The notes beneath the pieces were generated by a model that saw nothing but the letters and a program-made list of their open reading frames with translations, was not told the origin of the DNA and made no database searches. This document shows positions 994 to 21,200 of a stretch of 39,900 nucleotides of DNA, in pieces. The translations under genes and the position numbers were made by a program. Where the stretch lies: contig JBIIUN010000003.1 of assembly GCA_044339945.1 (NCBI GenBank), positions 1-39,900 on the forward strand, read 5' to 3'. This stretch comes from Candidatus Kapaibacterium sp. GTDB taxonomy: Bacteria; Verrucomicrobiota; Verrucomicrobiia; Limisphaerales; UBA9464. Each line of letters starts with the position of its first letter. The stretch's first letter is position 1.

Positions 994-1015
994 ACCGGCC
1001 TTTGCCCCTCAATTT

Positions 1016-1048
1016 CGCCCGCTTCCCGTCCCGGGAGGCGGGCGTTTT
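1016..1048 (+). terminator. Rho-independent terminator after jag
   Basis: 13-bp stem CGCCCGCTTCCCG / CGGGAGGCGGGCG (one G-U pair), loop TCC, followed by TTTT. Confidence 0.75.
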
Positions 1049-1128
1049 CGTTCGCGTCGGATGCGGCTTTCCAAAACAAATCCTTGCGGCGCGGCAAACA
1101 CGGCAGCTACACGTCCGCCCACTCTGTC

Positions 1129-3933: not shown

Positions 3934-3967
3934 CGCGGAAGCTCAGTCGCGAAGGCGGACCAATTTC

Positions 3968-3999
3968 AAGGCCCAGAACCCAGCCGGTTTTTGGGCCTT
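3968..3999. terminator. Hairpin between convergent topB and kinase genes, probably a terminator
   Basis: AAGGCCCAGAACC-cagcc-GGTTTTTGGGCCTT inverted repeat in the 90-bp convergent gap. Confidence 0.55.
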
Positions 4000-4023
4000 G
4001 CCGTTTCGGCCAATCGCTTGCGG

Positions 4024-5280
4024 TCAGGCCGGCAGATACAACGTCACGCAGGTTCCGCGGCCGGGAACGGTGGTGAAGTGCAGCGCGGCGCGGGTTTCGA
4101 GCACGGCGCGATAGACGACCGGCAACCCCAGACCGGTGCCCTCGCCGCTGGGCTTGGTGGTCAGGCTTTCCCGGAACAGCCGCGGAACCAAGTCGGCGGG
4201 AACGCCCGGGCCGTCGTCCCGGACGGCGATGGCGACGAACGGCGGCTGGTTCAGGAAATTGTCCCGCAGCCAGAAGGAGAGCCCGCCGCCGGGGGTGGGC
4301 GTGACAGCCGGCAGCGCGTCCCGGACGGTCCAGCACTCGATGTCCACGCGGTGGGGGCGGCCGGATGCCTGGAGCGCGTTGAGGCCGAGATTGCTGATCA
4401 TCCGGAACACGTCCGCGGCGCTGGCCTGGAGCAGGACCGGGGCAAGCGGCGGTTGGACGCGCAGCTGGTGGCCCTTGGCGGAACGGTGCGAGCGCAGCAG
4501 GTGGCCCAGGTCCTCCAGCACGGCCTTGGCATCGCACCGATCCTGGTCCTGGTTCCGCCGGAGCAGCCGCATGCTGCGCCGGGAAATCTCGATGGCCATC
4601 AGGCTCTGGTGCCTGAGGTCCAGCAGCAGTTCCTGGAACTGCTGGTTGGCCATCCGGACGCCGGTCAACGTCTGGGAAAGTTCGAGGGAAAGCGTCTCCG
4701 CCAGCGAGCTGATCACCGTGAGCGAGCCGTTCAGGTCGTGCAGGGCGCCGGCGTAGATGTCCCGTTCCATCCGGAAGGACTCAGCCTGGTGGGCCTGCTG
4801 CTCCAGCAGGGCCTGGTGCTCCCGTTCTTCGCGCCGGACTTCGGCCCGGGCACTGGCCTGGAGGACCAGCTCCCGGAGAACTGACACCTCAAACGGCTTC
4901 CGTAGGGCGGCAAAGATTTCGTCGTGCGCGGTCCGGGTGGTCAGGTCCAACGAAGGATCGGTGCCGAGCAGGATGGTCTGGGCCTCGGGCTGCAGGTGGT
5001 GAACACGCTGGGCCAACTCCCAGCCGGACATGCCGGGCAGGTGTCCGTCCACGATGACGACGTCGTGTCGCGCTTGGCCGAGGAATTCCAGGGCCGCGGC
5101 GCCGGAATCGCAGGCGCTGACCGCGAAGTCGTTCTGGAAAATCTGTTCCATGGCCTGCCGCACCAGCGGGTCGGCCTCGACGAGCAGCAATCCGGGCCGG
5201 CGGGCAGAGGCGACGGCGGCGCCGGCTGCCGGGCGGAGGTCCCGCCCGGCCGCGGGCGCGGTCTGCATTGGAGGATTCAT
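4024..5280 (-). CDS. Hybrid response regulator (receiver) - histidine kinase
   Basis: ATG at 5280 overlaps the upstream TGA (ATGA). REC: VIVDGHLPGMSG ... RKPF, with an atypical acidic pair LLLVEAD. H-box ALHDLNGSL, N-box NLGLNALQA, G1 DDGPGV, G2 GTGLGL. Confidence 0.85.
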   Translation of the reverse strand: MNPPMQTAPAAGRDLRPAAGAAVASARRPGLLLVEADPLVRQAMEQIFQNDFAVSACDSGAAALEFLGQARHDVVIVDGHLPGMSGWELAQRVHHLQPEAQTILLGTDPSLDLTTRTAHDEIFAALRKPFEVSVLRELVLQASARAEVRREEREHQALLEQQAHQAESFRMERDIYAGALHDLNGSLTVISSLAETLSLELSQTLTGVRMANQQFQELLLDLRHQSLMAIEISRRSMRLLRRNQDQDRCDAKAVLEDLGHLLRSHRSAKGHQLRVQPPLAPVLLQASAADVFRMISNLGLNALQASGRPHRVDIECWTVRDALPAVTPTPGGGLSFWLRDNFLNQPPFVAIAVRDDGPGVPADLVPRLFRESLTTKPSGEGTGLGLPVVYRAVLETRAALHFTTVPGRGTCVTLYLPA

Positions 5281-6542
5281 GACGTGGAGAGCAATTTTTC
5301 CCAAAGCCGCTCGTTGGTCATCAGGCGGGCGAGGAAGTCGCCGCCCTTCTCCGTGACGGATCCTTCCAGACGGTCGAGCGGCAGCCGGATGCTGTAGCGG
5401 AGGCCCCCCTCAGGGCGAGCCTGGACTTCGATCCGGCCGCCGTGGTGGTGCACGATGAAGAACGACGCCATCAGGCCGATGCCGAAGTCATTGGGTTGGT
5501 CGGTGCGGGTGAAGAACGGGTCGAACACCGACCGGAGGGCCTCCTCGGGCAGGCCGGGGCCATTGTCGCTCAGGGACAGTTCCAGTTCGGCCGGGGCGGT
5601 GGCCGAGGCGTCCACGGAGCGGGCATCGAGTTCGAGGATGTGCCCGGACTGGAGGTTGTTCAGTTCCTCGCGCAGCAGCAGTTCGAACATCCGGGGGAAT
5701 CGCTCGCCGTCGACCTTCAGCTTGGGCAGCCCCGCTGGCACCCGGTTGATGACGGTGATTCCCTTGGCCCGGAATGCGTCCCGGAGCCCATCGAGGGCCG
5801 TGCCCAGCAACGCCGCGGCATCGACCTCATGGCGGGGCAGGGGGGCCGGCGGTTCCGTGAACTGCGTGACGCCGTCGAGCACCTCGATGACGGCCTTGAG
5901 GCGACCCTGCACCTTGCTGTGGAAGTCGTGCCAGAAGCTGGGGTGCTGGAGCCGGTCGAGGTCCAGCCGCTCGCGGTGCAGCATCTCGGGCGTGAGCTCG
6001 AGGAACGTGCGCACCGCGGCCATCGAATTGCGGAGGTTGTGGCTGAGGCCCGAAGCCATCACGCCGAGGCCGAGCACCCGGTCGGTGATGACCATCTTGT
6101 GGAGGACCGAAAGTTTCTCGCGGAGCAGCGCGTCGCGTTCGCGCTGGAGCAGGAAGAATTCGAGCGCCCGCTTGATGGTGATCTCGAGCGAGTCGAAGTC
6201 GAACGGCTTGGAAACGTATTTGTAGATGGCGCCGCTGTTGATGGCGGCGACCGCGGCGTCCATGTCCGTGTAGGCCGTGGCCAGCATCCGGATGATGCGG
6301 GGCTGGAGCTTGCGGGCCTGTTCCAGCAACTGGACGCCCTGCATGCCGGGCATGCGTTGGTCGGAGATGATCACCCCCAGCTCGTCCTGGTGCTCCCGGA
6401 GCAGGCGGAGGCCCTCCTCGCCGCTCGGCGCGGTGAGCAGCCGGAGGTTCGGGGCCAGGATCTTGGTCACGTTCCGCAGCGACTTCTCCTCGTCGTCCAC
6501 GTAGAGGACGGCGAAGCGTTTGTAGTCGTAGGTGGGTTCCAT
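5277..6542 (-). CDS. Receiver + degenerate histidine-kinase protein, PhcQ/PhcR-like
   Basis: Start ATG 6542 (MEPTYDYKRF); the longer ORF-track start lies inside the upstream gene. Canonical REC (YVDDE, ISDQRMPG, ATAY, SKPF). H-box SHNLRNS, G1 DNGPGL, F-box FDPFFT, G2 GIGL, but no canonical N-box (FELLLREE). Confidence 0.85.
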   Translation of the reverse strand: MEPTYDYKRFAVLYVDDEEKSLRNVTKILAPNLRLLTAPSGEEGLRLLREHQDELGVIISDQRMPGMQGVQLLEQARKLQPRIIRMLATAYTDMDAAVAAINSGAIYKYVSKPFDFDSLEITIKRALEFFLLQRERDALLREKLSVLHKMVITDRVLGLGVMASGLSHNLRNSMAAVRTFLELTPEMLHRERLDLDRLQHPSFWHDFHSKVQGRLKAVIEVLDGVTQFTEPPAPLPRHEVDAAALLGTALDGLRDAFRAKGITVINRVPAGLPKLKVDGERFPRMFELLLREELNNLQSGHILELDARSVDASATAPAELELSLSDNGPGLPEEALRSVFDPFFTRTDQPNDFGIGLMASFFIVHHHGGRIEVQARPEGGLRYSIRLPLDRLEGSVTEKGGDFLARLMTNERLWEKLLSTS

Positions 6543-6562
6543 TTGAACTGGTTTCGAGGGTT

Positions 6563-9343
6563 CTACACTTGGGAATCCGCGGCAAACTCCAAAACAAACT
6601 CGCAGAATTCGCCCGGCCGGCTGTTCACGCGGATCCGCCCGCCGGATTCCTCCATGATGCGGTAGCAGATGCTCAGCCCGAGGCCCATGCCGGACCCGAC
6701 CGCCTTGGTGGTGAAGAAGGGGTCGAAGATCCGTGACAGGAGGTCGGCCGGGATGCCGGGGCCGTTGTCGCGGACCGAGATGAAGGGCACGGCGCCCGCG
6801 AGGCCGGCCCGCACCCGGACCTCGCCCGGCGGCGCGTCGGCCGGGCGTGCCTTGAGGGCGTCGAGCGAGTTTTGGATCAGGTTGATCAGCACCTGGAGCA
6901 ACTGGTTGGCGTTGGCCCGCACGGAGAGGCCATCGGGCACATCCAGTGACAACTTGACCCGCTCGTTGAGCTCCGCCGCGAAAAGCCGGGGCAGGCGGTT
7001 GAGCGTTTCCCGGGCTGAAATCGCCTCGACCGGGCCGCCGTGGCTGTGGGTGAAGGAGCGAAGATCGGCCACGATGTTGGAAACCCGCTTCAAGCCGTCC
7101 TCGGCATCCGCGACGGATTCCTTGAAGTCCGCCTGTTCGTCGGCGGGGAGCTGGGGGGCGGCCCGGCGGATCAGCACCATCGCGCCGAGGGCGTAATTCA
7201 GCGGGTTGTTGATCTCGTGGATGATGCCGGCGCACAGCCGCCCGAGGGAGGCCAGCTTCTCCGTCTGGACGAGCTGCGTCTCGGTTTCCTTGAGCTGTTC
7301 GAGGGCGGTTTCGAGGCGGCGGTTCTGCCAGCTCAGTTCCTTCTGGAGCTGGTGGGAGTCCACCAGGTTCTTCAGCCGCAGCCGGAGTTCCTGGGACGAA
7401 AAGGGCTTGGGCAGGAAGTCGCTGGCGCCCGCGGCGAGGGCTTGGAGCTTCGTTTCCTCGTCCGCCCGCGCGGTCAGCATCAAGAACGGCTGGGACCGGG
7501 TGGCGGCCTGCTTCCGCAGCTCGCGGCAGACGCTGAGGCCGTCGCGTCCCGGCATCATCATGTCACAGACCATGATCTCCGGCAGCATCTGGGTGGCGAG
7601 GCTGAGCGCCTGGTTGCCGTCCACCGCCTCGATGACCTCGTAGTCCTCGGCGAGCTGGCTCTTCAGGAAGCGCAGCATGTCCGGTTCGTCGTCGGCGAGC
7701 AGCAGCTTCGGACGCCGGCGGTTGCCGGCCGCGGGAGTCCAAGGGCGCAGCGAATCCTTCAGCGGGGCGATGCCGGAGAACATTTCGGCGCGCCGGTAGA
7801 GGCCTTCCAACCAGGCATCCTTGGGTTCCGCGGGCTGGGCGGTGGCGGCGGCGTCGGTGGCGGCCACGGCCTTGGATTCCGCCACCGCGGCGACCTCGGC
7901 CGACGTGGCCAGGGGCAGGCGCACGATCATGGTGGTGCCCCGGCCCAAGGTGCTTTCCGCGCCGACGGACCCGCCGTGGGCCTCCACCAGCTCCTTCACC
8001 AGCGACAAGCCGATGCCGGCGCCCTGGAACTTGCGCTGGGTGGAGGAATCGGCCTGCCAGAAGCGGTCGAAGATGAACGGCAACTGCTGCGGGTTGATGC
8101 CCATGCCGGTGTCCCGCACGGCGATGACGGCGAGGGCGCCCTCGCGGTGCGCGTGGATGGCCACCTCGCCGCCGGCCGGGGTGAACTTCACCGCGTTGAA
8201 GAGCAGGTTCAGGAACACCTTCTCCAGCTTGTCGGCGTCGCCCAGCAGATGCGCCACGTCGTCGGCCACCTGACATTGAAGACGCAGCCCCTTCTCGTCG
8301 GCGACGCCCCGCAGGGCCCGGAGCAGGCCCCTGAGGAAGTCCGCGGCGGGCACCGGCGCGGGTTGCAGCTTGAGGGTGCCGGAGTCCAGGCGGACGAGTT
8401 CGAGCAGGTCGTTGATCAGCTTCAGCAGGCGCATGCCGTTGCTGTGCATCGTGTCGAGGTGCTCGCGGACGGCCGGTTCGGCCAGCGAGGCGTGGCTGCC
8501 GCGGAAGGTTTCCAGCGGGGCGATCAGCAGGGTGAGCGGCGTCCGGAGCTCGTGGCTGATGTTGGCGAAGAAGCGGCCCTTGGACTCGTCGAGTTCCCGG
8601 AGCCGGTTGTTGGTCTGTTCGAGGTCCTGCTCGCGGAGCTTCAGCTCGAGGTTCGAGCTTTCGAGCTTGTGCTGGCTGGACTGGAGGCTGCGGTTGGTTT
8701 CGGCGAGCCGTTGCTCGCTCAGCTTCAACTCCTCCCGCGCGATGAATTCCCGGCGGCGCAGGCGATTGAAGAACACGTTGCCGGTCACCACGATGATGCC
8801 GGTCAGGGTCAGGAAGTAGAGGTTGTTGAAACCGTCGCCCGCCCGGAACGCGCCGCCGTGGACGACGCAGGCAATCACGTAGAACGCGACGATCAGGCCG
8901 CTGACCACGAGGGATTCCACCAGGTTCCAGTGGACCACCACGTTCACGGCCAGGAGCACGAGGTTCAGCCCGGCGTAGTAGGGGGAATCCCAGCCGTCGG
9001 TCTTGGCGATCATGACCGCGATGAACGCGGACGGGATCAGCGCCAGGGTGGGGCCGATGATCCGCGCGTAGCGTTCCCCGCGCGGCACGCGGAGCACCGC
9101 CCAGAGGCCCAGCGCGAGCGCCGAACTGATGAGCCGCAGGATGAGGAATTCCCCGACTTTGCCATCACTGCCGTAGACTAGGAAATCTAGCGACACGCCG
9201 GCCGGCATGAGCACCGCGATGAGCAGCGCGCCCACCTTGCCCATGCGCACCCGCTGGACCTGTTCGTCCGCGGCGAAGGCGTCGCGGAGCCCCGGATCGC
9301 GGGCCAGCAGGTCGTCAGGCGATTCCTGGCTTGCGGACTTCAA
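6563..9343 (-). CDS. Membrane hybrid sensor kinase: multi-TM sensor - HisKA/HATPase - REC - HisKA/HATPase (PhcS-like, expanded)
   Basis: About 6 hydrophobic segments, then a coiled coil. First kinase: FANISHELRTPL, NAVKF, DTGMG, GAGIGL. REC: LADDE, CDMMMP, PKPF. Second kinase: GIIHEINNPL, NLIQNS, DNGPG, GMGLGL. The TTG start at 9343 is uncertain. Confidence 0.9.
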   Translation of the reverse strand: MKSASQESPDDLLARDPGLRDAFAADEQVQRVRMGKVGALLIAVLMPAGVSLDFLVYGSDGKVGEFLILRLISSALALGLWAVLRVPRGERYARIIGPTLALIPSAFIAVMIAKTDGWDSPYYAGLNLVLLAVNVVVHWNLVESLVVSGLIVAFYVIACVVHGGAFRAGDGFNNLYFLTLTGIIVVTGNVFFNRLRRREFIAREELKLSEQRLAETNRSLQSSQHKLESSNLELKLREQDLEQTNNRLRELDESKGRFFANISHELRTPLTLLIAPLETFRGSHASLAEPAVREHLDTMHSNGMRLLKLINDLLELVRLDSGTLKLQPAPVPAADFLRGLLRALRGVADEKGLRLQCQVADDVAHLLGDADKLEKVFLNLLFNAVKFTPAGGEVAIHAHREGALAVIAVRDTGMGINPQQLPFIFDRFWQADSSTQRKFQGAGIGLSLVKELVEAHGGSVGAESTLGRGTTMIVRLPLATSAEVAAVAESKAVAATDAAATAQPAEPKDAWLEGLYRRAEMFSGIAPLKDSLRPWTPAAGNRRRPKLLLADDEPDMLRFLKSQLAEDYEVIEAVDGNQALSLATQMLPEIMVCDMMMPGRDGLSVCRELRKQAATRSQPFLMLTARADEETKLQALAAGASDFLPKPFSSQELRLRLKNLVDSHQLQKELSWQNRRLETALEQLKETETQLVQTEKLASLGRLCAGIIHEINNPLNYALGAMVLIRRAAPQLPADEQADFKESVADAEDGLKRVSNIVADLRSFTHSHGGPVEAISARETLNRLPRLFAAELNERVKLSLDVPDGLSVRANANQLLQVLINLIQNSLDALKARPADAPPGEVRVRAGLAGAVPFISVRDNGPGIPADLLSRIFDPFFTTKAVGSGMGLGLSICYRIMEESGGRIRVNSRPGEFCEFVLEFAADSQV

Positions 9344-10721: not shown

Positions 10722-10794
10722 GGTGCTGGTGTGGACCCGACCGGGCTTGGCCGGCGGGAGAAATGGCGAACTCCCGACAGCCGACACGAGGGCG

Positions 10795-10823
10795 AACCTA
10801 AGGGGCCGGCCGGACAATCCCAA
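10795..10823 (-). promoter_or_regulatory. Possible sigma70-type promoter for the phcB-like operon
   Basis: Minus strand TTGGGA-N17-TAGGTT in the fadL-phcB gap; weak match. Confidence 0.25.
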
Positions 10824-10879
10824 GCGGGAAGTCCGGCCGCCTCAGGCTCGGTTCCGTGAGTCCGGCGGGTGTGTGGCCG

Positions 10880-12121
10880 CTAGAAGCGGCAGCCCACCGT
10901 GATGAAGATCGCGTGGCTGATGAACTCGTAGCGGCCGTCGGCGGATTGGCCGAGCGGGGAAACGAGGCTGCCGGCCACCGTCCGGGTCGGCCCATAGCCG
11001 AACTGGTAGGCCACGTCGAAGTCCAGCCGCTCGCCGCGGTGACCGACACCCACGCTCCAGAAGTGCCGGTCCAAGTCGGCCACCAGCGGGTTGTAGGTCA
11101 CGTCCGGCACCGAGTTTTCGTTGTAGATGTAGCCGCCGCTCACCGTCCAGCCATTGTCCAGGTAGCGGGTCGCGCCGAATTCGTAGTAGAAGCTGGATTC
11201 CCAATGGAACGGCAGCGGCAACGGGTTGGCCGGCAGGCCGGGGACCGCCTGTTGCTGGATGACGAAGGTGTTGAGCCGGTTCCAGTCGGTCCAATCCACG
11301 TTGAACTCCAGGTTCCAGGCGGGCGTGGGGCGGAACGAAAGTCCCGCGACGATATTCTGCGGGAACTTCCACTCGGAGCTCGCCGTCGGATTCAGCCCCA
11401 ACAAGTTCCAAGTCGTGTCCCCCTTGAGTTCCACGGTGGTGGCGCTTCGGTAGTTGAGCCCGAACTGGAACTGGGGATTGATCTTCCACATCAGCCCGGC
11501 GTTGAAACCCGCCGACCAGCCGTTGCCCTCGAACCTCAATTGGTCGCCCAGTCCGGCCGCGGGCGTCGCGAAGCCTTGGCGCAGGGCGGTATCGACGAAG
11601 TTCACCATCGGCCCCGCCGCAATCGACAGGCTGGGCGTGATTTCCCAGGCGATGACCGGATTGATCGTGAAGTAGCTCAGGCGGCCACGGATGCCGACGG
11701 TGCGGAAGCCTGTGTCCTCCGGCCATTCGTTGCTCAGCCCGAACGGCGAATAGAGGCCCAGGCCGTAGGCCAAGGGCAGGGATTCGGACTTGTAGGTGTA
11801 GAACAGTTGCGGGACCGCATGCAGGTCGTTGCGGTTGTCGTATTCCTGGCCGCCGGGCGCGGTGTAGTCGCTGTCCGTCTTGATGCCGAAGACGCCGCCG
11901 CGAAATTGCTGCCCTTCCAGTTGGGTGATGCCCGCCGGATTGTAGAAGATGGCGGACGCATTGTCGGCCGTGGCCGCAAAGGCCTCGCCCCGGGCGGTGG
12001 CAAAGGCATCCTGGTCGGGCAGCCGGAAGCCGGTGCCCAAGGCGGGCAACGTGCAGGCCAGGGCGGTGGTGGCGGCGGTGAAACGCCGGCAGAGGTGATG
12101 AGGAGTGGGGTGGATCTTCAT
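10880..12121 (-). CDS. fadL: FadL/OmpP1/TodX outer-membrane long-chain fatty acid (hydrophobic compound) transporter
   Basis: Signal peptide, then GFRLPDQDAFATARGEAFAATADNASAIFYNPAG (hatch NPA motif) and YSPFGL...W. Alternating beta-strands and a C-terminal Phe. Confidence 0.9.
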   Translation of the reverse strand: MKIHPTPHHLCRRFTAATTALACTLPALGTGFRLPDQDAFATARGEAFAATADNASAIFYNPAGITQLEGQQFRGGVFGIKTDSDYTAPGGQEYDNRNDLHAVPQLFYTYKSESLPLAYGLGLYSPFGLSNEWPEDTGFRTVGIRGRLSYFTINPVIAWEITPSLSIAAGPMVNFVDTALRQGFATPAAGLGDQLRFEGNGWSAGFNAGLMWKINPQFQFGLNYRSATTVELKGDTTWNLLGLNPTASSEWKFPQNIVAGLSFRPTPAWNLEFNVDWTDWNRLNTFVIQQQAVPGLPANPLPLPFHWESSFYYEFGATRYLDNGWTVSGGYIYNENSVPDVTYNPLVADLDRHFWSVGVGHRGERLDFDVAYQFGYGPTRTVAGSLVSPLGQSADGRYEFISHAIFITVGCRF

Positions 12122-12167
12122 GTGTGGTAGTGAAGCGAAAGGAGGGGAGACGGGGCGTCAGCCGGGG

Positions 12168-12995
12168 TCATGGACGACGGTTCAGTTCCGCGGCCCGGCG
12201 GAAAAAATCGGTCACGCCGATGGAGCGGTTGAACCATTCCCCGAATCTGGGAAAGAGCGCGGACAGCGCCAGTATCGGCCGCACAGGGTAACGGTTAACG
12301 ATGAGTTCGGGGCAATCCTCGCGGATGGCCCGGATCACCGCCTGGCAGACGCGTTCCGGCGGGCAGGCGCCCAGCAACGCCGGGGCGGCGTGACCGGTGG
12401 TTTCCTTCAGCCGGGTGTAGATGCCGGCCTCGATGAAGCCGGGGGTCACCACCGAGGCGCTGACGCCCGTGCCCCGGTAGCTTGCCCGCAGCGACTGGGT
12501 GAAACCGACCAGCCCGGCCTTGGTCGCGGCGTAGGGCTCCTGGAAGCCCGGCCCCGCTTTGCCGGCCAGCGAAGAAATGTTCAAGATGTGGCCGGTGCCA
12601 CGTTCCAGGAGGTGCGGGAGCAATTGCCAGGACAACAGCATGGGCGCCTCCAGGTTGACGGCGATCACCTCCGCGATCTGCGACGCGGTCAGTTCGTGGT
12701 AGGCCCACGAATACTCCACGCCGGCGTTGTTGATGAGCAGGTCCACCTGGCCGAAGTGGCGGAGCGCGCTTTCGATGACCCGTGTCCGTTCGGCGGCGAC
12801 CCGCAGGTCGGCGACCAGGACTTCGGCGCGCACCGTTTCCTTCGCGGCGACGGCCTGCACGCGCGGGAGTTCCACCCCGGGATAGGCCACGAGCAGGAGG
12901 TTGATCTGCTCCGAGGCGAGGGCGTGGACCAAGTGGGACCCGAGGCCCCCACTGGCGCCCGTAAGAATAGCGGTCCGGCCGGCGAGTTGTTTCAT
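12168..12995 (-). CDS. Classical short-chain dehydrogenase/reductase (SDR)
   Basis: TGASGGLG (TGxxxGxG), NNAG, NISS and catalytic YAATK. Ends 46 bp upstream of fadL on the same strand. Confidence 0.92.
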   Translation of the reverse strand: MKQLAGRTAILTGASGGLGSHLVHALASEQINLLLVAYPGVELPRVQAVAAKETVRAEVLVADLRVAAERTRVIESALRHFGQVDLLINNAGVEYSWAYHELTASQIAEVIAVNLEAPMLLSWQLLPHLLERGTGHILNISSLAGKAGPGFQEPYAATKAGLVGFTQSLRASYRGTGVSASVVTPGFIEAGIYTRLKETTGHAAPALLGACPPERVCQAVIRAIREDCPELIVNRYPVRPILALSALFPRFGEWFNRSIGVTDFFRRAAELNRRP

Positions 12996-13220: not shown

Positions 13221-13757
13221 ATGAAAGCCCTCAAGAAAACACTCGTGGTCATCGCGGGCGTCATCGCCTTGCTCGTCATAATCGGCCTGTTTCTGCCCAA
13301 GACCTACCACGTCGAGCGTTCGGCGGTGATCAATGCCCCGGCCGACAAAGTTTACCCGTTCATCTCCACCTTCCGTCGCTGGCCGGAGTGGATTGCCTGG
13401 ACCACCAACAAGTATCCCGACATGACCATGAAGTTCGGTGACACTGACACCGGGGTCGGGGCCGGCTATTCGTGGGCGGGGAAGTCGAGTGGCAACGGCG
13501 CGATCACGTTCACCGCCTTGGACCCGGGCAAGAGCATCGGTTACCACCTCGACTTCGAGAACGGCCAGTATCTGTCCACCGGCACGATCAGCTTGGTGCC
13601 CGATGGCTCCGCGATGAAGGTCACCTGGACCAACGACGGCGATCTTGGGGCCAGTCCGATCGGCCGCTGGTTTGGCCTGTTCATGGATCGCATGATGGGC
13701 CCGGATTTCGCCTAGGGATTGGCCAACTTGAAGACGCGGGTCGAAGCCGCAAAGTGA
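13221..13757 (+). pseudogene. SRPBCC (polyketide cyclase/START-like) protein with an in-frame TAG at 13713-13715, 13 sense codons before the expected stop
   Basis: N-terminal TM, YHVERSAVINAP, GVGAGYSW.G, VTWTN.G. Reading through the TAG gives GPDFA*GLANLKTRVEAAK-TGA(13755-13757), the usual C-terminal helix of this family. Confidence 0.7.
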
Positions 13758-13775: not shown

Positions 13776-14711
13776 TCAGGGCAACGGGGTCGTTCGCGCC
13801 GCGGTCACGAGGTGATACCAGTCCGCGTGGGACAGGTTCAGCGCATCGGCCGCCGCGGCGGCGCGGATACGGGCCGGATCGGTCGAACCGACGACGGGTT
13901 GGATGCCGGCCGGATGCCGCAGCAGCCAAGCGAGGGCGACGGCTTCCCGGGTTGCGCCGAGGGCTCCGGCGAGACGGTCCAGCATGGTGTTGACCCGCGT
14001 CGGCTCGTAGCCGCGCTGGCCCGGCAGCAAGCCGTGAACGTGGGAGCCCAGCAGGCCGCCGGCGAGCGGGCTCCACGCCATGGGCGTGATCGTCTCCGCG
14101 AGGCACTGGTCCAGCGTGCCGTCTTCCAGCGCGGCGAGCTGAAGCAGGCTGAGTTCGACCTGATTGACGGCCAAGGGCAGCGGGCACAGCCGTTGCAGGG
14201 CTGTCACCTGGCTGGGACGGAAATTACTCACGCCGAACTCGCGCACCTTGCCGGCGTCGCGCAGTTGGACAAAGGCGCCGGCCACGGCGTGGGGATCCAT
14301 GAGGTAATCGGGCCGGTGCAGCATCAGCAGGTCGAGGGTTTCGATGCCCAGTCGGCGCAGCGAGCCCTCGACGCTGGTCACGATGTATTCGGTGGTGAAA
14401 TCATAGCGGACCGGCGTGCCCGCGGGTTCCCCGGCCCGCCGGATGCCGCACTTGCTGGCAATCAGGATGCGCGCGCGAAGCTCCGGGGCCGCCCGCAGCG
14501 CCTCGCCGAAGATCTCCTCGCAGCGCCCGCCGCCGTAGATGTCGGCCAAGTCGAACATCGTGTAACCCGCGTCGGCCGCGGCGTGGACCGCGCGGATGCC
14601 GACGGCGCTGGTGGGTTCCGGCGGCTGGCCTTCGGAGCCGGCGAGGCGCCAGCAGCCGTAGGCCAAGCGGGAGGCGACGAGGGCGCTGCGCCCGAGACGG
14701 AGGGTTTTCAT
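13776..14711 (-). CDS. Aldo/keto reductase (YdhF-like)
   Basis: Start ATG 14711 (MKTLRLG). Motifs YGCWRL, FDLADIYG, IASKCG, LLMLHRPD, GVSNF, NQVELS, AWSPLAGG, LAWLLRHP. Confidence 0.92.
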   Translation of the reverse strand: MKTLRLGRSALVASRLAYGCWRLAGSEGQPPEPTSAVGIRAVHAAADAGYTMFDLADIYGGGRCEEIFGEALRAAPELRARILIASKCGIRRAGEPAGTPVRYDFTTEYIVTSVEGSLRRLGIETLDLLMLHRPDYLMDPHAVAGAFVQLRDAGKVREFGVSNFRPSQVTALQRLCPLPLAVNQVELSLLQLAALEDGTLDQCLAETITPMAWSPLAGGLLGSHVHGLLPGQRGYEPTRVNTMLDRLAGALGATREAVALAWLLRHPAGIQPVVGSTDPARIRAAAAADALNLSHADWYHLVTAARTTPLP

Positions 14712-14834
14712 GTGCGGACGGACCGTGAAACCGGCCGTCTTCGGGTGAAAGCCCAAAGGCGCACGCGGGTCGGAGCCACTTGAACTAGGCAATCTCTTCG
14801 GAGTGCAGCAAGATCCCGCCGGCCATCCTGATTT

Positions 14835-15569
14835 GTGAACTCAACTCAGCCAGCAACCGCCCCGGCGCAGGACGGCTTCGGTTTTCCCGAGACTGCGTGG
14901 AGCACGATCCTGCGGGCCCGGCAGAATTCCGCGGACGAACGCTTCGCCGCCGTGCAACGGCTATGTGAGCGTTACGAGCCAGCCATCCGCCGGAGCTTCC
15001 AGAAGACCGCTGGGCCGGAAATGGACGTGGATGAACTGGTCCAAGGCTTCTTCACCGAGAAGTTTTTGCGCCCACAGTTTCTGGCCAATTTGGAACGGGA
15101 CGGCGGACGTTTCCGCGACTTCATCCGGCAATGCCTGCGCAACTACCAGCGCACGGCGTGGCGGCGTTCGGTCCGCCACAGCCACCATGAAGTCATCGGG
15201 GCGGAGGCGACCGAACCAACTTCGGAAGCGCCCGGTCCTGACGTTGCGCTGGACCGGGAATGGGCGCGGCAGATTTTGGAACTGGCCCGCGCCCGGCTGC
15301 GGTCCGAAGCGGAGGCGGGCGGTTTTCTTGAACTGTGTTCCCATCTCGAAGCCCAACTGGACGGGGCTACTGACCTGCCCGGTCAGGCCGAATTGGGGCA
15401 GCGTCTGGGCAAGTCGCCCAACGCCGTGGCAGTCGCCCTTCACCGGTTGCGCGAACGCTACGGCTGGCTGCTGCACGATGAAATCCGCCAGACAGTGGCC
15501 GATCCCACCCGCTGGCGAGAGGAACGCGACCACCTGCTTGCGATCCTCAATTCGGTTGGAACGCCATGA
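14835..15569 (+). CDS. ECF RNA polymerase sigma factor, kinase-associated type
   Basis: N-terminal F.xT.WS extension (FPETAWST). Region 2 DVDELVQGFF ... GRFRDFI, then DREWA, and region 4 HTH AELGQRLGKSPNAVAVALHRLRERY. Stop overlaps the kinase start (ATGA). Confidence 0.88.
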   Translation: MNSTQPATAPAQDGFGFPETAWSTILRARQNSADERFAAVQRLCERYEPAIRRSFQKTAGPEMDVDELVQGFFTEKFLRPQFLANLERDGGRFRDFIRQCLRNYQRTAWRRSVRHSHHEVIGAEATEPTSEAPGPDVALDREWARQILELARARLRSEAEAGGFLELCSHLEAQLDGATDLPGQAELGQRLGKSPNAVAVALHRLRERYGWLLHDEIRQTVADPTRWREERDHLLAILNSVGTP

Positions 15570-17863
15570 CCTTCGAGGAGTTGGCCCAGGCGCGGGAGGG
15601 CAGTCCGCTCGGGGCGTTGCCGCTTTCGGCACCATTGCCCGAGGAATTCCGCCTGGTTGGTGAGGACTATGTGCTGCTCGAACGGTTGGGCGAAGGCGGT
15701 ATGGGGGAAGTCTGGTGGGCGCGGCAACTGAGCACCGGGCGGGAGGTGGCTGTGAAGCTCCTACGGCGCGGACATTCGGATGCGCGTTTCGCGCAAGAGG
15801 TGGCGGCCCTGGCCAAACTGGAGCATCCCGGAATCGTGAAACTGTTCCAGGCCGGGCAGCACGAAGGTCGCCCGTTCCTGGTGTTGGAACTGATTGCGGG
15901 GCCAACCGTGGCACAGTTGCTCCAAGCCGGTCCGCTGGAGCCGCGCATGGCGGCCCAGGCGGTAAAGGAAGCCGCCGAAGCCCTCGCCGCGGGCCACTCC
16001 CAAGGACTCATTCACCGGGATCTCAAACCTTCAAACCTGCTCCGCGATGCGGCGGGCCGGGTGCGGGTGACCGACTTCGGCCTGGCCAAGGACCTGACGG
16101 CAGGGCGCGACTTGACCCTGACGGGCGAACAGTTGGGCACGCCCGCCTACATGGCCCCGGAACAGGTGGATTCTCGTCGCGGTGTCGTGGGGTCCGCCGC
16201 GGATGTTTACGGGCTGGGTGCGACCCTGTTTCACACGCTCACTGGGCGGCCGCCTTTCGACGGTGCGACCACGGCGGAGATTCTTCACCATGTGATGACC
16301 CGGGAACCCGACTGGCATACCGGTTGGGAGCGCGTGCATCGTGACCTGCGAACGATTTGCCAGCGGGCCATGCACCGGGAACCCGGCCGCCGTTACCCCG
16401 GCGCTGCCGAACTCGCGGCGGAACTCGGCCGTTTCCTCGCCGGCGAACCGATTCACGCCCGGCCGATGTCCCTGGCCGAACGCGCGTGGCGCACCGCCCG
16501 GAAACCTTGGCCCGTGGCCGTCGCGGCCGCGTCGGTGCTGGGCAGTTTGCTCGCGGCCCTTTTGTTGCCGGTGTTGAACCGGAGCCAGACCCGGGCGTTG
16601 GTTTCGGGGTGGCCGCGGGCCAACCCGACCGCGCTTCATGTCCTCAACACTCCCAGCCGGGCGGGCTCGGGCCGATTTGTGTCGTTCTCAGATGTGAAGG
16701 GCTTGATGGCCATTGGCGGTTCGGAACGCCGGGTGCGAATTGCAGCCCTTGATCCGTGGCGTCCGTTGACTGGCAGCCTTCTGCTCTCGAATCGGGTCAG
16801 CTTCCACGTCTTCCAGCCCGGTGAGCCCATTCTGCTGACCGTCGAGGAATCCGGGCGCTGGAAAATCGCCCTCGTTGATCCCATCTATCGCGAAGGCATC
16901 AGCGACCAAATGAGCACCAACGTCACCCGGGTCGCCTACAGCCGCGAGGGCCATCACTGGGCGCTGGGCTCCGCGGCCGGCGAGGTGGATGTGCGGGCCT
17001 TCACCGAGCGTCAATTCCGCCGGCCGTTCCAGACCCGACATGACGGGGCGGTCACTGCCCTTCAGTTTGACGAGACCGCCAGTCGGCTGCTGACGGCCTC
17101 AGCCGACCGCACGGTCCGACTCTGGGATCTCGCGACTCAACAGCCATTGCAGACTTGGAGCGCCGACGCGCGCTTTGTGGTCGCTGGTTTCGCGGCCGGC
17201 GATTCGCTGGTGTATGCGGCCCACGTCCGAAGTCGCAGGAGTTCCGTCACCCGCCTGTTTCGGACTGCCGACGGTTCCTCGGTGGCGACCAATCATTTCT
17301 CGGGTGAACTGACCGGGCTTCAGTTGAGCCCGGACGGCTCCCGACTGATCGCCTTGTCCAGTGAGCGCTGGGCCGAAATCTGGGATGTTCGAGATCTGAC
17401 CGTCATCGCCAAGACCAGCGAGCATCCCGAACCACTCACGACCGCTTCAGTCAGTGCCGACGGCTTGCGCCTGTTGACCGTGGATGCCAGCGGCAGCGCC
17501 CGGCTCTGGGACGCCCACACCGGCGAGCCGCTAAGCGACTTCTGGCGTGGGCCGGCTGGTATCCGGCACGCCGCCTTTGCCCCCGACGGAATCCGCATTG
17601 GCTCCGGCGATGTCGGCCCCACCGGCACCCTTTGGGACGCGAGTTGTCCCCTGCCGGTCGGTTGGGATCGGGAAGCTTTGCTCCGCGCCCTGTTGCGCGA
17701 CGGGCGCCTTCCCTCCTTGCGGCGGGCGGCCTGGCTCGCCCCGGAAAATGCCGACGTGCTGAACCGGCTCGCGACTGCCACGGCGGTCGATGAACCCCAG
17801 CCCCGGGGCCAGCCGGAAGCGGATTTTCTCCGCCAGCGTGCGGCGCGGTTGTCCCCTCGATGA
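15566..17863 (+). CDS. Hanks-type Ser/Thr protein kinase - TM - WD40 repeats
   Basis: GEGGMGEV, VAVK, HRDLKPSN, DFG, GTPAYMAPEQ, DVYGLG. TM segment VAVAAASVLGSLLAALLL. WD repeats LLTASADRTVRLWD and GSARLWD. Confidence 0.93.
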   Translation: MTFEELAQAREGSPLGALPLSAPLPEEFRLVGEDYVLLERLGEGGMGEVWWARQLSTGREVAVKLLRRGHSDARFAQEVAALAKLEHPGIVKLFQAGQHEGRPFLVLELIAGPTVAQLLQAGPLEPRMAAQAVKEAAEALAAGHSQGLIHRDLKPSNLLRDAAGRVRVTDFGLAKDLTAGRDLTLTGEQLGTPAYMAPEQVDSRRGVVGSAADVYGLGATLFHTLTGRPPFDGATTAEILHHVMTREPDWHTGWERVHRDLRTICQRAMHREPGRRYPGAAELAAELGRFLAGEPIHARPMSLAERAWRTARKPWPVAVAAASVLGSLLAALLLPVLNRSQTRALVSGWPRANPTALHVLNTPSRAGSGRFVSFSDVKGLMAIGGSERRVRIAALDPWRPLTGSLLLSNRVSFHVFQPGEPILLTVEESGRWKIALVDPIYREGISDQMSTNVTRVAYSREGHHWALGSAAGEVDVRAFTERQFRRPFQTRHDGAVTALQFDETASRLLTASADRTVRLWDLATQQPLQTWSADARFVVAGFAAGDSLVYAAHVRSRRSSVTRLFRTADGSSVATNHFSGELTGLQLSPDGSRLIALSSERWAEIWDVRDLTVIAKTSEHPEPLTTASVSADGLRLLTVDASGSARLWDAHTGEPLSDFWRGPAGIRHAAFAPDGIRIGSGDVGPTGTLWDASCPLPVGWDREALLRALLRDGRLPSLRRAAWLAPENADVLNRLATATAVDEPQPRGQPEADFLRQRAARLSPR

Positions 17864-17956: not shown

Positions 17957-18220
17957 GCCGCGAAGCCGCCTGACCCAAACCACCGGACCCAGCCTCCGCG
18001 CCTGAGCCCGCGCGAAGCGGAGGTCGCCGCGTGGCTGGGTGAGGACGATACCTACGCCCAGATCGCCGCGCGGCTCGGGTTGAAACACGACACCGTGCGC
18101 GGACACGCGCGGGCCATTTTTGCCAAGCTCGGCGTGCGCACCCGTCCGGCGGCCGTCGCCCGGCTGCTGGGCCAAGGCATTGGGGCTACGCAAAAGGGGA
18201 GGATTGACTGCCAGTGTTAG
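17954..18220 (+). CDS. Stand-alone LuxR/GerE-type helix-turn-helix regulator
   Basis: LSPREAEVAAWL...TYAQIAARLGLKHDTVRGHARAIFAKLGVRTR; no receiver or ligand-binding domain. Confidence 0.82.
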   Translation: MAAKPPDPNHRTQPPRLSPREAEVAAWLGEDDTYAQIAARLGLKHDTVRGHARAIFAKLGVRTRPAAVARLLGQGIGATQKGRIDCQC

Positions 18221-18290
18221 TATCCGTGTGACTTCTATTCATGCCCCTTTCCTTCGATCCCAGTCTGGTTCCGGCAACCCCTGCACTTTC

Positions 18291-21200
18291 ATGAGAAACC
18301 GCAGCCCCAGTCTGTTCTTTAACCGCTTGGACTGGATGGGATGTTTTCTGGCGAGCTTGGCCCTCATTGGATGCCTTACCACCCAGGCCGCCGACTTGGT
18401 TATTCGTGACATCCAGGTGCGGCCGGACCAGCCGGTTCAAATCCGGGTGCCGGCCAGCTTGGACGCCTACTACGTGCTCTATCGGGGTGAGCAGGTTCAG
18501 CAAATCATCCTGCCCCGGGACATGCGGCTCGGCGCCGGCGCTGAAGTGACCCTGACGGACCCGGTTCCCCGACCCGATACGGCCTTTTACCGCATTGAGC
18601 AGGTGCCCATCGCCACGCCGCGCGACACGGACGGCGACGGCATGGATGACGTCTTTGAACTGCGGCACCCCACGGCCTGCAAACCATTGGTTGCCGATGC
18701 GAGTCTGGATCCCGACGGGGACGGTAAGACCAACCGGGAGGAATACCTGCTGGGCACCGACCCCGGGACGCCCAACGTTCCTCCGGCCGTCCGGCTGGTG
18801 GCACCCAACGATCTGGCCGTGCTCTTTTTGCCCGGACCATTCGACCTTGTCGCGGAAGCCTCGGACGCCGAGGGACCGCTTTCCTCGGTGGACTTTCTGG
18901 CCGGCGACATCCTCCTCGCGACGCGGACCAACGCTCCCTTCGCCTTCTCCTGGACCAACGCGCCCGTGGGCACCAATCGGCTCACCGCCCGGGCCACCGA
19001 TCAATTCGGCGCCCGCGCCACCTCAAGCCCGGTCACCGTCCGAATCCGGTTTCCCAATGCGCTCCCCAACGTGGCGATCACCGCTCCGGAAACCAACTCG
19101 CTCCACGCCTTGCCGGTCGCCATCGAGGTGATGGTCGCGGCGAGCGACTCCGAAGGCCCGGTGGAATCGGTCCGGATCTTTTTCAACCGGACCAACCTGC
19201 TGGCCAGCCTCACCAACGTCCCCTTCGCCTTTGGCTGGACCAATGCGCCGTTGGGCACCAACGAACTGACCGCGGTCGCCCTTGACTCCGACGGGGCCAG
19301 CGTCACCTCGGCGCCGGTGAGCATCCGGGTGATCGTCGCCAACCGGGCTCCGGAATTCGCCGCGATCCCGGACGAGGCGGTGGACGAGGAGAAGCCGCTG
19401 AGCCTGAGCCTGAGCGCGACCGATGCCGACGAGCCGCGGCAGACGCTGACCTATGGTCTGGTCAGCGGTCCCGCGGGCTTGAGCGTGACCGCAGGCGGCG
19501 CCCTGAGCTGGACACCCACCGAGGCCCAGGGCCCGACGAACGTCGCGGTGCGGGTATCGGTGACGGACGGACTGTTGAGCGTGACCAATCAGTTCACGGT
19601 CGCCGTGCGGGAGGTGAACGTGGCGCCCGTGCTGGCGGCGATCCCGGACCGCGCGGTGGACGAACTCACGCCGCTGGCCTTGGCCCTGAACGCAACGGAC
19701 GCCGACGAGCCGCGGCAGATGCTGACCTATGGCCTGGTCAGCGGTCCCGAGGGCGTCGCCGTGACGTCTGGCGGCGCCCTGAGCTGGATGCCCACCGAGG
19801 CCCAGGGCCCGACGAACGTCGCGGTGCGGGTGTCGGTGACGGACGGACTGCTGAGCGTGACCAACCGGTTCAACGTGGCGGTGCGCGAAGTCAATGAGCT
19901 GCCAACATTCTTGGGACTGACCAATCAATCCATTCCCGAGCTGTCATCCTTCGCCCTGCCGCTGGCCGCCACTGACCCAGACCTACCAACCCAAAACCTT
20001 TCGGTCGCCTGGGTCGCTGGACCGGCTGGGTCGGGCGTGACCAACGGGGTTTTCGCTTGGCTCCCGGACGAACGCCAGGGGCCCTCCACCAACGAGGTGC
20101 GGGTCGTCGTCACTGACGGCCAACGGACCGTTACGAATGCCTTCACCGTGATCGTCACGGAGGTGAACACCGCGCCGGTGTTGGCGCCCGTTGCCAACCG
20201 GACCATTGACCAACTGACCCCATTGGACCTGACGTTGACCGCCACCGACGCCGACGAACCGGTCCAAGCCCTGACCTTCAGCTTGGTGAACGGGCCCGCC
20301 GACCTGACTGTGACTCCAGCCGGGCGGGTGTCCTGGGCTCCTCGACCGGCCCAGTTCCCCAGCACCAATGTCGTCGCTGTGCGTGTCGGCGACGGGCAGG
20401 ACTTCGCCACGAATACGTTCACGGTTTTCGCCCTGCCGGTGGACATACCGCCCACGGTGACCCTGACCGAACCCCTCGGCAGCGTCGCCTATGCGGCGCC
20501 GGGTTATGTGAAGCTCCATGCGGAGGCCCGCAGCACCAACGCCGCCATCGCCCGGGTCGAGTTTCTGGCGGGCACCAACGTCATCGGCACCGTCACGGCG
20601 CCACCCTACCGCTTCAACTGGGATGCCGTGCCGGCCGGGGAATACGTCATCACTGCCCGCGCGGTGGATACCCAGGGTGTCGCCGCCACCAATGGCGTGC
20701 CCACGCTCGTCAAGGTCACGCCGCTGGACACCGAACCGCTGACCACCTTCGCCAGCTCCCCGACGGCGGGCGAAACCGGCGTGGCGGTGACCCGCGAGAC
20801 CGTGCTCCGGTTTACCTGCCCGCTGCGCGACGACGCCACTGTGAGCCTCGACCGGTTTAATGCCGTGGCCAACGGACGCCGCGTGCTGTCCCGCATCGAG
20901 CTTTCCACCGACCGGCGCACCGCCACGCTGTTCTATCTGGAGAACCTGCCCGCCAGCAGCCGTGTGCGGGTGACCTTCAATGGCACGGGAATTTTCGACT
21001 GCCTGGGCCGCGCGGTGGATGCCGACGGCGACGGCCAGCCCGGCGGCATCGCGGAATTCGACTTCGACACGCTGGCGACCGTGGCGGTGGCCCGGACGGC
21101 GATCAGCGGGCGGGTGTTTGCCTCCGAACCGGTGTCGGGTGCGGGCACGACCAACTTCCTCAACCGCCCGCTCCAGGGCGTCACCATCACGGTGGACGGC

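Follow-up and report, generated by a model that had tools for sequence, protein, structure and literature searches.

Only in a few systems is it established by what route a very hydrophobic quorum signal passes the outer membrane. Krol and Becker are said to have found in 2014 that Sinorhizobium FadL homologues take up long-chain acyl-homoserine lactones. FadL-mediated uptake of long-chain AHLs in this genus is also stated in the accessible part of PMC9938287. In P. aeruginosa, oxylipin quorum sensing needs the FadL homologue ExFadLO (PA1288), and the direction of transport was debated, export having been proposed first and import now (available portion of bioRxiv 10.1101/2021.09.08.459554). 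For the Ralstonia signal 3-OH MAME, the accessible sections of PMC11960443 name no outer-membrane channel, and in strain GMI1000 the response regulator gene prhX lies 597 bp upstream of phcB according to the part of PMC10788593 that was available. A literature search for phcB in Verrucomicrobia or for FadL together with phcB returned nothing relevant, most subscription journals lying outside the search. To our knowledge, no cell-to-cell signalling has been described in Verrucomicrobiota.

Gene order at the locus and its Phc-like cassette

We analysed a window of 39,900 nucleotides, by which we mean the whole stretch of DNA under study. Its source is a Verrucomicrobium from lake water, and the assembly is 85% complete. 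The original prediction had described an SDR gene, fadL and a phcB-like gene as co-oriented and separated by 46 and 158 bp, and the ORF listing and its translation reproduced this arrangement exactly, with every one of the three encoded on the minus strand. Elsewhere in the window, at 22-23 kb, the GC content dips, and a search of this region for a tandem repeat found none.

Table 1 Coordinates of the features at the locus
Feature	Position	Strand	Assignment or remark
SDR ORF, 275 aa	12995-12168	-	Pfam adh_short 1.3e-43, 149 bits
SDR-fadL gap, 46 bp	12122..12167	-	sequence
FadL-family ORF, 413 aa	12121-10880	-	Toluene_X/FadL PF03349, 2.5e-47, 161.7 bits
fadL-methyltransferase gap, 158 bp	10722..10879	-	long GC-rich hairpin without U tract
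PhcB-like methyltransferase ORF, 468 aa	10721-9315, GTG start at 10721	-	Pfam class I SAM methyltransferase
Hybrid membrane histidine kinase, 926 aa	6563..9343	-	Pfam; tblastn
REC-kinase-like protein, ORF as listed	5277..7235	-	Pfam REC + HATPase
SRPBCC (lipid-binding fold) protein	13221..13715	+	Pfam Polyketide_cyc2 6e-15

Against a Cupriavidus protein the methyltransferase was 41% identical across 460 aligned residues (E 2e-112); against a Paraburkholderia plasmid gene it was 39% identical in an alignment covering 98% of its length. Its motifs KPLGYAGDY and NLGCGPA were invariant. In one protein-collection source, its relatives are annotated as 'extracellular factor (EF) 3-hydroxypalmitic acid methyl ester biosynthesis protein'. 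Homology along the full length to the phcBSRQ-type proteins of Burkholderiaceae that were compared, from Cupriavidus and Paraburkholderia, thus places the methyltransferase, at the level of sequence, in the PhcB type. The hybrid kinase gene follows the methyltransferase gene in 14 of 14 phylum genomes. According to Pfam, the kinase consists of a polytopic N-terminus, a HisKA-HATPase module, a REC domain and a second HisKA-HATPase module; its residues 3-479 matched the kinase of the Paraburkholderia locus (tblastn, E 7e-38), where one kinase and two response regulators are encoded downstream of the methyltransferase gene. As in Ralstonia phc, the gene immediately after that of the window methyltransferase encodes a sensor kinase with a polytopic N-terminus, and REC-kinase-like proteins are encoded next; unlike in Ralstonia, the kinase is a single hybrid, which resembles a fusion of PhcS and PhcR. 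Homologues of the REC-kinase-like protein aligned from about residue 226 of the listed ORF, and because the conserved part begins there, the real start probably lies close to the kinase stop. Loci L092 and L109 carry ketosynthase, ketoreductase and phosphopantetheinyl transferase genes ahead of the methyltransferase gene.

Upstream of the methyltransferase gene the window differs from GMI1000, having FadL and the SDR where prhX lies ahead of phcB. It had been claimed that neither gene belongs to the core Ralstonia operon, and this fits the prhX position given in the accessible text of PMC10788593 as well as locus L003 on a Paraburkholderia plasmid, where neither FadL nor an SDR was found within 8 kb. 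The addition of FadL and the SDR therefore departs from the described phc operon.

No sigma-70 promoter or intrinsic terminator was called in either intergenic gap, consensus patterns that may not apply to this phylum, and a scan of 4.6 kb returned one promoter-like and one terminator-like site, both intragenic and no more than in shuffles. In relatives, tblastn coordinates put the length of the SDR-fadL gap between about 70 and 246 bp. The fadL-methyltransferase gap folded with a minimum free energy of -85.1 kcal/mol (z -4.72), a value that none of 200 shuffles reached. Orthologous gaps gave z values of -3.2, -2.4, -1.8, -1.2, 0.06 and 0.16, of which only some beat the shuffles, and a conserved motif was sought in an alignment of eight such gaps, which held almost no conserved sequence. 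RNA contigs from four metatranscriptome runs in four studies covered parts of all three genes, in libraries that may also contain DNA; no contig in these four runs spanned 12122-12167 or 10722-10879, the contigs being short and unable to show transcript ends.

The FadL-family protein and the recurrence of its gene

FadL channels are passive beta-barrels plugged by an N-terminal hatch domain, in which the NPA motif is important. This motif has been studied in E. coli FadL, as the PDB entry titles 'delta NPA', 'N33A' and 'P34A' indicate. The window protein exceeded the PF03349 cut-off of 29.7 bits and covered profile positions 7-389 of 421. It has an N-terminal leader, a mature protein beginning with GF, NPA at residues 61-63 and a C-terminal Phe. 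E. coli FadL chains were matched at 1e-11 with N61-P62-A63 aligned to the E. coli NPA, and among 36 methyltransferase-linked FadLs, A63 was invariant and P62 at least 90% conserved. The AlphaFold2 model (pLDDT 91, pTM 0.86) gave Foldseek TM scores of 0.81-0.83 to E. coli FadL (E about 1e-32) and of 0.67-0.74 to TodX, TbuX and CymD, and is thus predicted to have the FadL-type beta-barrel fold. The predicted fold, the NPA motif and the mature G-F start are shared with E. coli FadL (PDB 1T16 and mutants), whereas identity to it is merely about 18% in the structural alignment. In the assembly of the window's genome, which is 85% complete, no second protein matched PF03349.

The original prediction had made linkage of fadL to phcB in related genomes a point to be checked, and the linkage did recur. 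Among 85 assessable loci from the best 80 of at least 596 methyltransferase matches, FadL lay no more than 1 kb upstream of the methyltransferase gene in 39 (22 co-oriented, 17 divergent) and somewhere in the retrieved flank, at most 10 kb long, in 47, and the flanks of the other 38 contained none; because these loci are kin and stem from the best 80 matches, the percentages are no population estimate. Single-query tblastn found FadL at 34 of 67 loci. The profile for the flank search was built from 85 sequences, and it detected no hidden FadL among Pfam-less upstream ORFs of FadL-less loci (e.g. L038, L044, L090 and L095). At some FadL-less loci, an OprB-family porin is encoded immediately upstream (L080, L100) or within about 3.7 kb upstream (L049, L099).

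PF03349 proteins are scarce in the phylum, occurring in 53 of 151 sampled genomes and mostly in 1-3 copies, and we estimate that chance adjacency would amount to well under 1% per genome. FadL was present in 11 of 14 other methyltransferase-bearing genomes, and in four genomes (G330, G249, G033 and G096) the lone copy lay within 10 kb of the methyltransferase gene. The near-complete methyltransferase-bearing genomes G351, G354 and G081 gave no PF03349 match. These genomes and the FadL-less flanks mean that FadL is dispensable for the cassette.

In the FadL tree, linked FadLs formed four clades free of any FadL from methyltransferase-less genomes, with 14, 14, 15 and 3 members (SH-aLRT 96, 100, 95 and 100, respectively), a pattern that may in part reflect taxonomy, since linked and unlinked FadLs were sampled from different genomes. 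On the methyltransferase tree the FadL types were scattered, starred branches requiring no fewer than 8 changes for type A, 3 for type B and 7 for type C, a distribution implying that FadL was repeatedly gained, lost or replaced. Loci with the adjacent arrangement include Verrucomicrobiaceae loci of clade B, such as L046 and L053, which suggest relatives of Prosthecobacter. The placement of FadL beside the methyltransferase gene exceeds chance, and its recurrence speaks for a functional connection of the channel with the Phc-like cassette.

The SDR and its restricted linkage

The SDR is, by sequence, an intact classical SDR with cofactor motif and N-S-Y-K tetrad: T12-G19 (TGxxxGxG), N89-G92 (NNAG), N114, S142, Y155 and K159 were invariant among eight orthologues. 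It is probably cytoplasmic, because the Rossmann cofactor motif TGASGGLG begins at residue 12 with no leader ahead. Its best solved relative is the (3R)-hydroxyacyl-CoA dehydrogenase 2et6 (7.6e-29), followed by FabG and actinorhodin ketoreductase. Cofactor motif and tetrad are shared with FabG-type 3-oxoacyl reductases and (3R)-hydroxyacyl-CoA dehydrogenases. Unlike FabG-type classical SDRs, the window SDR has a 75-residue C-terminal extension, conserved among its orthologues, belongs to a narrow orthologous group delimited by a drop in identity from 55% or more to 37% or less, and stays below every NCBIfam cut-off (FabG TIGR01830, 114.2 bits vs 297.75; the top model PRK06181, 137.6 vs 215). 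Because these equivalog cut-offs were missed, that of TIGR01830 among them, an assignment as FabG equivalog was rejected.

For the SDR, the predicted linkage held in part: it recurred in a narrow clade (L033, L035, L037, L152-L155 and L160) but not at other loci. The trio of SDR, FadL and methyltransferase genes is retained in L033, L035, L037 and L152-L154, and also in L155 with FadL inverted; on the short contig of L160, the SDR gene stands beside an inverted FadL gene, followed by the contig end. Other methyltransferase loci have no SDR gene or an unrelated one, as in the G327 order methyltransferase-kinase-REC-AraC-FadL-SDR-SDR, where both SDRs are unrelated to that of the window. At loci with distant SDRs only, neither FadL nor the methyltransferase was found nearby (0 of 71 such loci), and the L157 orthologue (55% identity) has unrelated genes as neighbours. 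SDR genes of any kind, counted at 94 loci, showed no obvious excess over expectation for so common a family. With linkage confined to the narrow orthologous group, the SDR was rejected as a general component of the module; it is clade-specific and stays beside FadL even where FadL is inverted.

Proposed role of the channel and alternative readings

With gene identities, predicted folds and recurrence of linkage shown, we propose that FadL is an accessory outer-membrane conduit for a lipid-ester signal of the Phc-like cassette and that the SDR, specific to one clade, provides a precursor or tailors the signal, a reading to which we give about an even chance. A Phc-like cassette, in which a relative of a signal synthase stands beside a membrane sensor, would be made up of the methyltransferase, the hybrid kinase with its polytopic N-terminus and the REC-kinase proteins, and it may make and sense a hydrophobic signal of the fatty-acid-ester type. 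The FadL barrel would carry this signal past the lipopolysaccharide barrier. Since FadL channels are passive, release and uptake would both be physically possible; uptake for perception appears favoured by analogy with the two published lipid-signal systems. The SDR, added by one sub-lineage only, may be a cytoplasmic oxidoreductase of the 3-oxo/3-hydroxy type, which would supply a 3-hydroxyacyl precursor or oxidise or reduce the signal at C3.

As in Sinorhizobium, where the accessible text has a FadL-family channel serving a hydrophobic cell-to-cell signal that crosses the outer membrane poorly, the window channel would serve such a signal; the signal class differs, and in many genomes the window-type channel gene is linked to a cassette of synthase and sensor. 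ExFadLO likewise is a FadL homologue required, according to the part of the source available, for a fatty-acid-derived autoinducer system, but oxylipins are produced extracellularly by secreted dioxygenases and that system has neither a methyltransferase nor a two-component sensor.

The channel may instead admit long-chain or 3-hydroxy fatty acids of external origin, whose source in the lake water might be algae or other bacteria, and which the SDR and the methyltransferase would modify and the kinase would sense, so that the system would respond to foreign lipids and not to a self-made signal. The model's nearest match to the E. coli long-chain fatty-acid transporter, the position of FadL as the only such channel in the assembly and the activity of the SDR's nearest solved relative on 3-hydroxyacyl-CoA are consistent with this, as is the P. 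aeruginosa oxylipin signal, which, as far as the available text goes, is formed extracellularly from oleic acid of the host and imported afterwards. We nevertheless consider it unlikely, since the methyltransferase is related over its full length to an autoinducer synthase, the biosynthetic genes of L092 and L109 point to an endogenous acyl chain, and many cassettes lack FadL.

That FadL chiefly releases a self-made hydrophobic ester, with perception independent of it, seems quite improbable. The passive nature of the channel would allow such a role, ExFadLO was initially proposed as an exporter in the part of that source available, and the accessible part of PMC11960443 describes Ralstonia as 'secreting' its signal, with the outer-membrane route unnamed; against this, import is now favoured in both published lipid-signal cases, as far as their accessible text reaches, and a signal within the outer-membrane bilayer may depart without a channel. 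It is very unlikely that the SDR and FadL are a pair for uptake and catabolism of hydrophobic compounds placed beside the cassette by chance, for although FadL genes often accompany degradation genes (cf. the structure titles of TodX, TbuX and CymD), 158 bp and a strong hairpin separate fadL from the methyltransferase gene and the L157 SDR orthologue is unlinked, FadL itself is rare and the adjacency at 39 of 85 loci (best 80 of at least 596 matches) comprises two orientations, four FadL clades and many independent changes on the methyltransferase tree.

Recurring in four channel lineages and in both orientations, the placement of FadL next to a cassette of PhcB-like synthase and sensor makes the channel a concrete and testable candidate for the passage of such a signal across the outer membrane. 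By this analysis FadL is an accessory of general occurrence and the SDR one confined to a lineage, and this distinction guides the first knock-out and the choice of organism. More tentatively, we raise the possibility that lipid-ester signalling of the Phc-like kind occurs widely beyond the Proteobacteria and has repeatedly recruited FadL barrels as a dedicated outer-membrane gate; the channel might then set who hears the signal, and the SDR of the window's sub-lineage might toggle C3 between 3-hydroxy and 3-oxo, giving a private signal variant or a switch-off.

The SRPBCC protein has a hydrophobic N-terminus, and its gene is divergent from that of the SDR. Its membership in the module is doubtful because conservation is limited to close relatives: among the related loci compared, its gene adjoins the SDR gene only in L033 and L152-L154.

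Gene order and PhcB likeness of the methyltransferase

The ORF listing placed the SDR, fadL and methyltransferase genes exactly at the coordinates of the original prediction, and both intergenic gaps had the predicted lengths. The methyltransferase belongs to a large and well-conserved family (more than 5,000 matches among 8,000 candidates scored), and many of its relatives are labelled 'EF 3-hydroxypalmitic acid methyl ester biosynthesis protein' by one source. Its PhcB likeness was judged against Paraburkholderia and Cupriavidus proteins. The window protein shares 39% identity over 98% of length with the product of a Paraburkholderia graminis plasmid gene, whose downstream neighbours, a kinase and two response regulators, give the phcBSRQ layout. 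The plasmid protein is ~68% identical to Cupriavidus proteins, and one of that set aligned to the window methyltransferase with 41% identity over 460 residues (E 2e-112). According to passages of one paper, the PhcB product is methyl 3-hydroxypalmitate or methyl 3-hydroxymyristate, and PhcB homologues are present in Ralstonia, Cupriavidus and Paraburkholderia (PMC6989110). The window kinase and its Paraburkholderia counterpart have the polytopic N-terminal part in common (residues 3-479, E 7e-38); the former looks like a fusion of PhcS and PhcR.

Features of the window around the methyltransferase gene and on its flanks
Feature	Position	Strand	Basis or remark
957-aa and 221-aa ORFs	1009-4537	-	After the REC-kinase genes
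Two more REC-kinase-like ORFs	After the 926-aa kinase in transcription order	-	ORF listing
Hybrid histidine kinase, 926 aa	9343-6563	-	Pfam: polytopic N-terminus, HisKA-HATPase, REC, second HisKA-HATPase
Class I SAM methyltransferase, 468 aa	GTG 10721 to 9315	-	Pfam
fadL-methyltransferase gap, 158 bp	10722-10879	-	ORF listing
FadL/TodX-family outer-membrane channel, 413 aa	12121-10880	-	PF03349, 161.7 bits vs cut-off 29.7
SDR-fadL gap, 46 bp		-	ORF listing
SDR, 275 aa	12995-12168	-	Pfam adh_short 1.3e-43, classical short-chain dehydrogenase
SRPBCC (lipid-binding fold) protein	13221-13715	+	Hydrophobic N-terminus; divergent from SDR
Aldo/keto reductase	13776-14792	-	Past the SRPBCC gene
ECF-type sigma factor and Ser/Thr protein kinase	14835-17863	+	Kinase with WD40 propeller
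2613-aa ORF	18120-25961	+	Big_7, Big_9, TSP3 repeats
1-kb G+C dip	~22001-23000		Within the 2613-aa ORF

Recurrence of the FadL linkage

Among 401 sampled genomes of the phylum, the methyltransferase was found in 15, namely the window's genome and 14 others. It is followed by a kinase of the long 926-aa type and a REC-kinase in all 14 of these carriers, 5 of which have a FadL homologue no farther than 10 kb away. A one-genome-per-species scan yielded at least 596 methyltransferase relatives; the 80 best were kept, which come mainly from Verrucomicrobiota, while a small number bear the labels Binatia, 'delta proteobacterium', FCPU426 or Acidobacteriota. Of the 67 loci whose upstream sequence reached 1.3 kb or more, a tblastn query with the window FadL showed 34 to have a FadL ending no more than 1 kb from the methyltransferase start. 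A FadL profile made from 85 sequences was next searched against 94 loci (14 plus the 80 best of at least 596), nine of which were left out because of contig ends. The profile placed FadL adjacent and co-oriented in 22 loci, adjacent and divergent in 17 and elsewhere in the flank in 8, and detected none in 38. FadL thus adjoins the methyltransferase in 39/85 assessable loci (38/84 without L032, a near-copy of the window with 98% methyltransferase identity) and lies in the flank in 47/85. The predicted recurrence of the fadL/SDR-phcB linkage in relatives therefore held for FadL; for the SDR, with its few orthologues, it did not extend beyond one lineage.

Loci that lack FadL differ in the gene that precedes the methyltransferase; in seven of them it is a REC-kinase gene. 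An OprB-family porin directly precedes the methyltransferase in L080 (8395-9819) and L100 (8450-9907), and an OprB gene lies up to ~3.7 kb upstream in L099 (6493-7872) and L049 (5782-7164). An alpha/beta hydrolase accompanies OprB in L080 and L100, and L080 also has a DUF2156/LPG-synthase-C gene. FadL, a 530-aa DUF2156/LPG-synthase-C protein and the methyltransferase follow one another on the same strand in L107 (7087-9973). Before the methyltransferase in the FCPU426 loci L092 (6801-9919) and L109 (5801-8836) come genes for a FabG-like SDR and for a phosphopantetheinyl transferase, together with a ketosynthase-like ORF in the former and an FAD-type oxidoreductase in the latter, which suggests that loci of this type have their own acyl-chain supply. 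In L076 an RND pump and a thioesterase occupy this place. Such recurrent outer-membrane channel or lipid-building genes beside the cassette fit a lipid-derived product.

Candidate role of the channel and independence of its linkages

The window FadL carries a hydrophobic leader at its N-terminus and ends in Phe. A G-F pair at the expected mature start matches the 'Phe3' of E. coli FadL (PDB titles), and its NPA at 61-63, a motif kept across 36 linked FadLs, aligns with the NPA of the E. coli protein. An AlphaFold2 model built with an alignment of linked FadLs (pLDDT 91, pTM 0.86) matched E. coli FadL with TM 0.81-0.83, above the monoaromatic channels TodX, TbuX and CymD (TM 0.67-0.74).

Hydrophobic molecules diffuse through the barrel of FadL channels and exit via its wall. 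That long-chain AHLs are taken up through FadL in Sinorhizobium reportedly goes back to a 2014 study by Krol and Becker. Such uptake is described in passages of PMC9938287, and excerpts of a preprint state that oxylipin quorum sensing in P. aeruginosa requires ExFadLO, for which export of the signal was thought first and import is now proposed (bioRxiv 10.1101/2021.09.08.459554). By analogy, we favour a role in which the window FadL would provide the route for the signal across the outer membrane, uptake towards the polytopic sensor kinase being likelier than release. The channel might instead bring in foreign lipids as a cue or substrate; its recurrent neighbour is a relative of a signal synthase. 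It might also serve export only, as was initially thought of ExFadLO, for which the newer proposal is import.

Against the third alternative, that FadL and the SDR are mere neighbours of the cassette, stand the scarcity and history of these channels. Sampling of 151 phylum genomes showed PF03349 in 53, mostly in 1-3 copies, and the window's genome (85% complete) has a single copy, the gene studied here. With one or two copies per 3-6 Mb, we roughly estimate chance adjacency at well under 1%. A FadL is present somewhere in the genome in 11 of the 14 other methyltransferase-bearing genomes and was not found in three near-complete ones (G351, G354 and G081), so the channel is accessory, not required. 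Our FadL tree comprised 85 rows: 45 linked FadLs, 8 unlinked FadLs whose genomes carry the methyltransferase, and 32 whose genomes gave no match to it. The partial FadLs of L036 and L061 were left out, as was that of L074, found afterwards. The linked FadLs fell into four well-supported clades without any member from a methyltransferase-less genome: clade A with the window FadL (14 rows, SH-aLRT 96), clade B from Verrucomicrobiaceae, every one co-oriented (14 rows, support 100), clade C with 11 divergent neighbours (15 rows, support 95) and clade D (3 rows, support 100); linked and unlinked FadLs were drawn from different genome samples, and the pattern may partly mirror taxonomy. On the methyltransferase tree (96 rows; both trees are quick LG+G4 searches) the FadL types are scattered; its well-supported branches require no fewer than 8 changes for type A, 7 for type C and 3 for type B. 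Sister methyltransferases, such as L107/L105 and L043/L054, can differ in FadL type or in having a FadL. Gain, loss or replacement of the linkage has thus happened many times over, and without selection for proximity this would be difficult to account for.

Full-text searches returned no relevant paper linking FadL with phcB, or phcB with Verrucomicrobia, and the passages of the Ralstonia Phc literature at hand name no outer-membrane route for the signal. The arrangement amounts to a variant of the known Phc-type cassette, joined by an outer-membrane channel that recurs across loci and, in a single lineage, also by an SDR.

The SDR, the intergenic gaps and the flanks

The SDR is without a leader peptide. 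Eight orthologues share, without change, its intact cofactor motif, NNAG and Asn114-Ser142-Tyr155-Lys159 tetrad, and the SDR scored under every NCBIfam cut-off. Its best solved relatives, (3R)-hydroxyacyl-CoA dehydrogenase (7.6e-29) followed by FabG and actinorhodin ketoreductase, all work at acyl-chain C3, but C3-acting enzymes prevail among SDRs with solved structures. The SDR has few orthologues, nine loci with at least 55% identity in a metagenome scan, the next being at most 37%. The order AKR, SRPBCC, SDR, FadL, methyltransferase, kinase is preserved in L152-L154, and SDR-FadL-methyltransferase in L033, L035 and L037. The SDR also adjoins FadL in L155 (SDR 61%, methyltransferase 49%) and on the short contig L160, in both of which FadL is inverted. 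Around the SDR of L157 (55%) lie genes for DAHP synthase and acyltransferase, and ~9 kb of sequence there contains neither FadL nor methyltransferase; L156, L158 and L159 are too short for judging. None of the 71 loci with distant SDRs only has a FadL or methyltransferase, and the SDR pair after FadL just downstream of the cassette in genome G327 is unrelated. Given this narrow orthologue set and the unlinked distant SDRs, the SDR is a lineage-specific addition tracking the channel, not a general component of the cassette. The SRPBCC and aldo/keto reductase genes stand beside the SDR in close relatives only (L033, L152-L154).

No promoter or terminator was called in either gap. The fadL-methyltransferase gap folds into a hairpin that is long, rich in GC and without a U tract (-85.1 kcal/mol, z -4.72, 0/200 shuffles equally low). 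Orthologous gaps showed no sequence conservation in alignment; their folding against shuffles was mixed (z -3.2, -2.4, -1.8, -1.2, 0.06, 0.16), and some likewise begin with a strong hairpin. The window's DNA is frequent in lake-water metagenomes, with more than half of sampled words in 14 runs from separate studies, one of which may be the window's source sample. Metatranscriptome contigs from four runs of four studies, whose libraries may contain DNA, cover parts of the SDR, fadL and methyltransferase genes, and none spans the SDR-fadL or fadL-methyltransferase junction.

Elsewhere in the window, the dip within the 2613-aa ORF has 49% G+C vs ~65% in the rest of the window, and a tandem repeat sought there was not found. 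The 957-aa and 221-aa ORFs, without a Pfam or NCBIfam match, are conserved in L032 and L033, and the sigma factor and Ser/Thr protein kinase genes overlap at the start of the latter.
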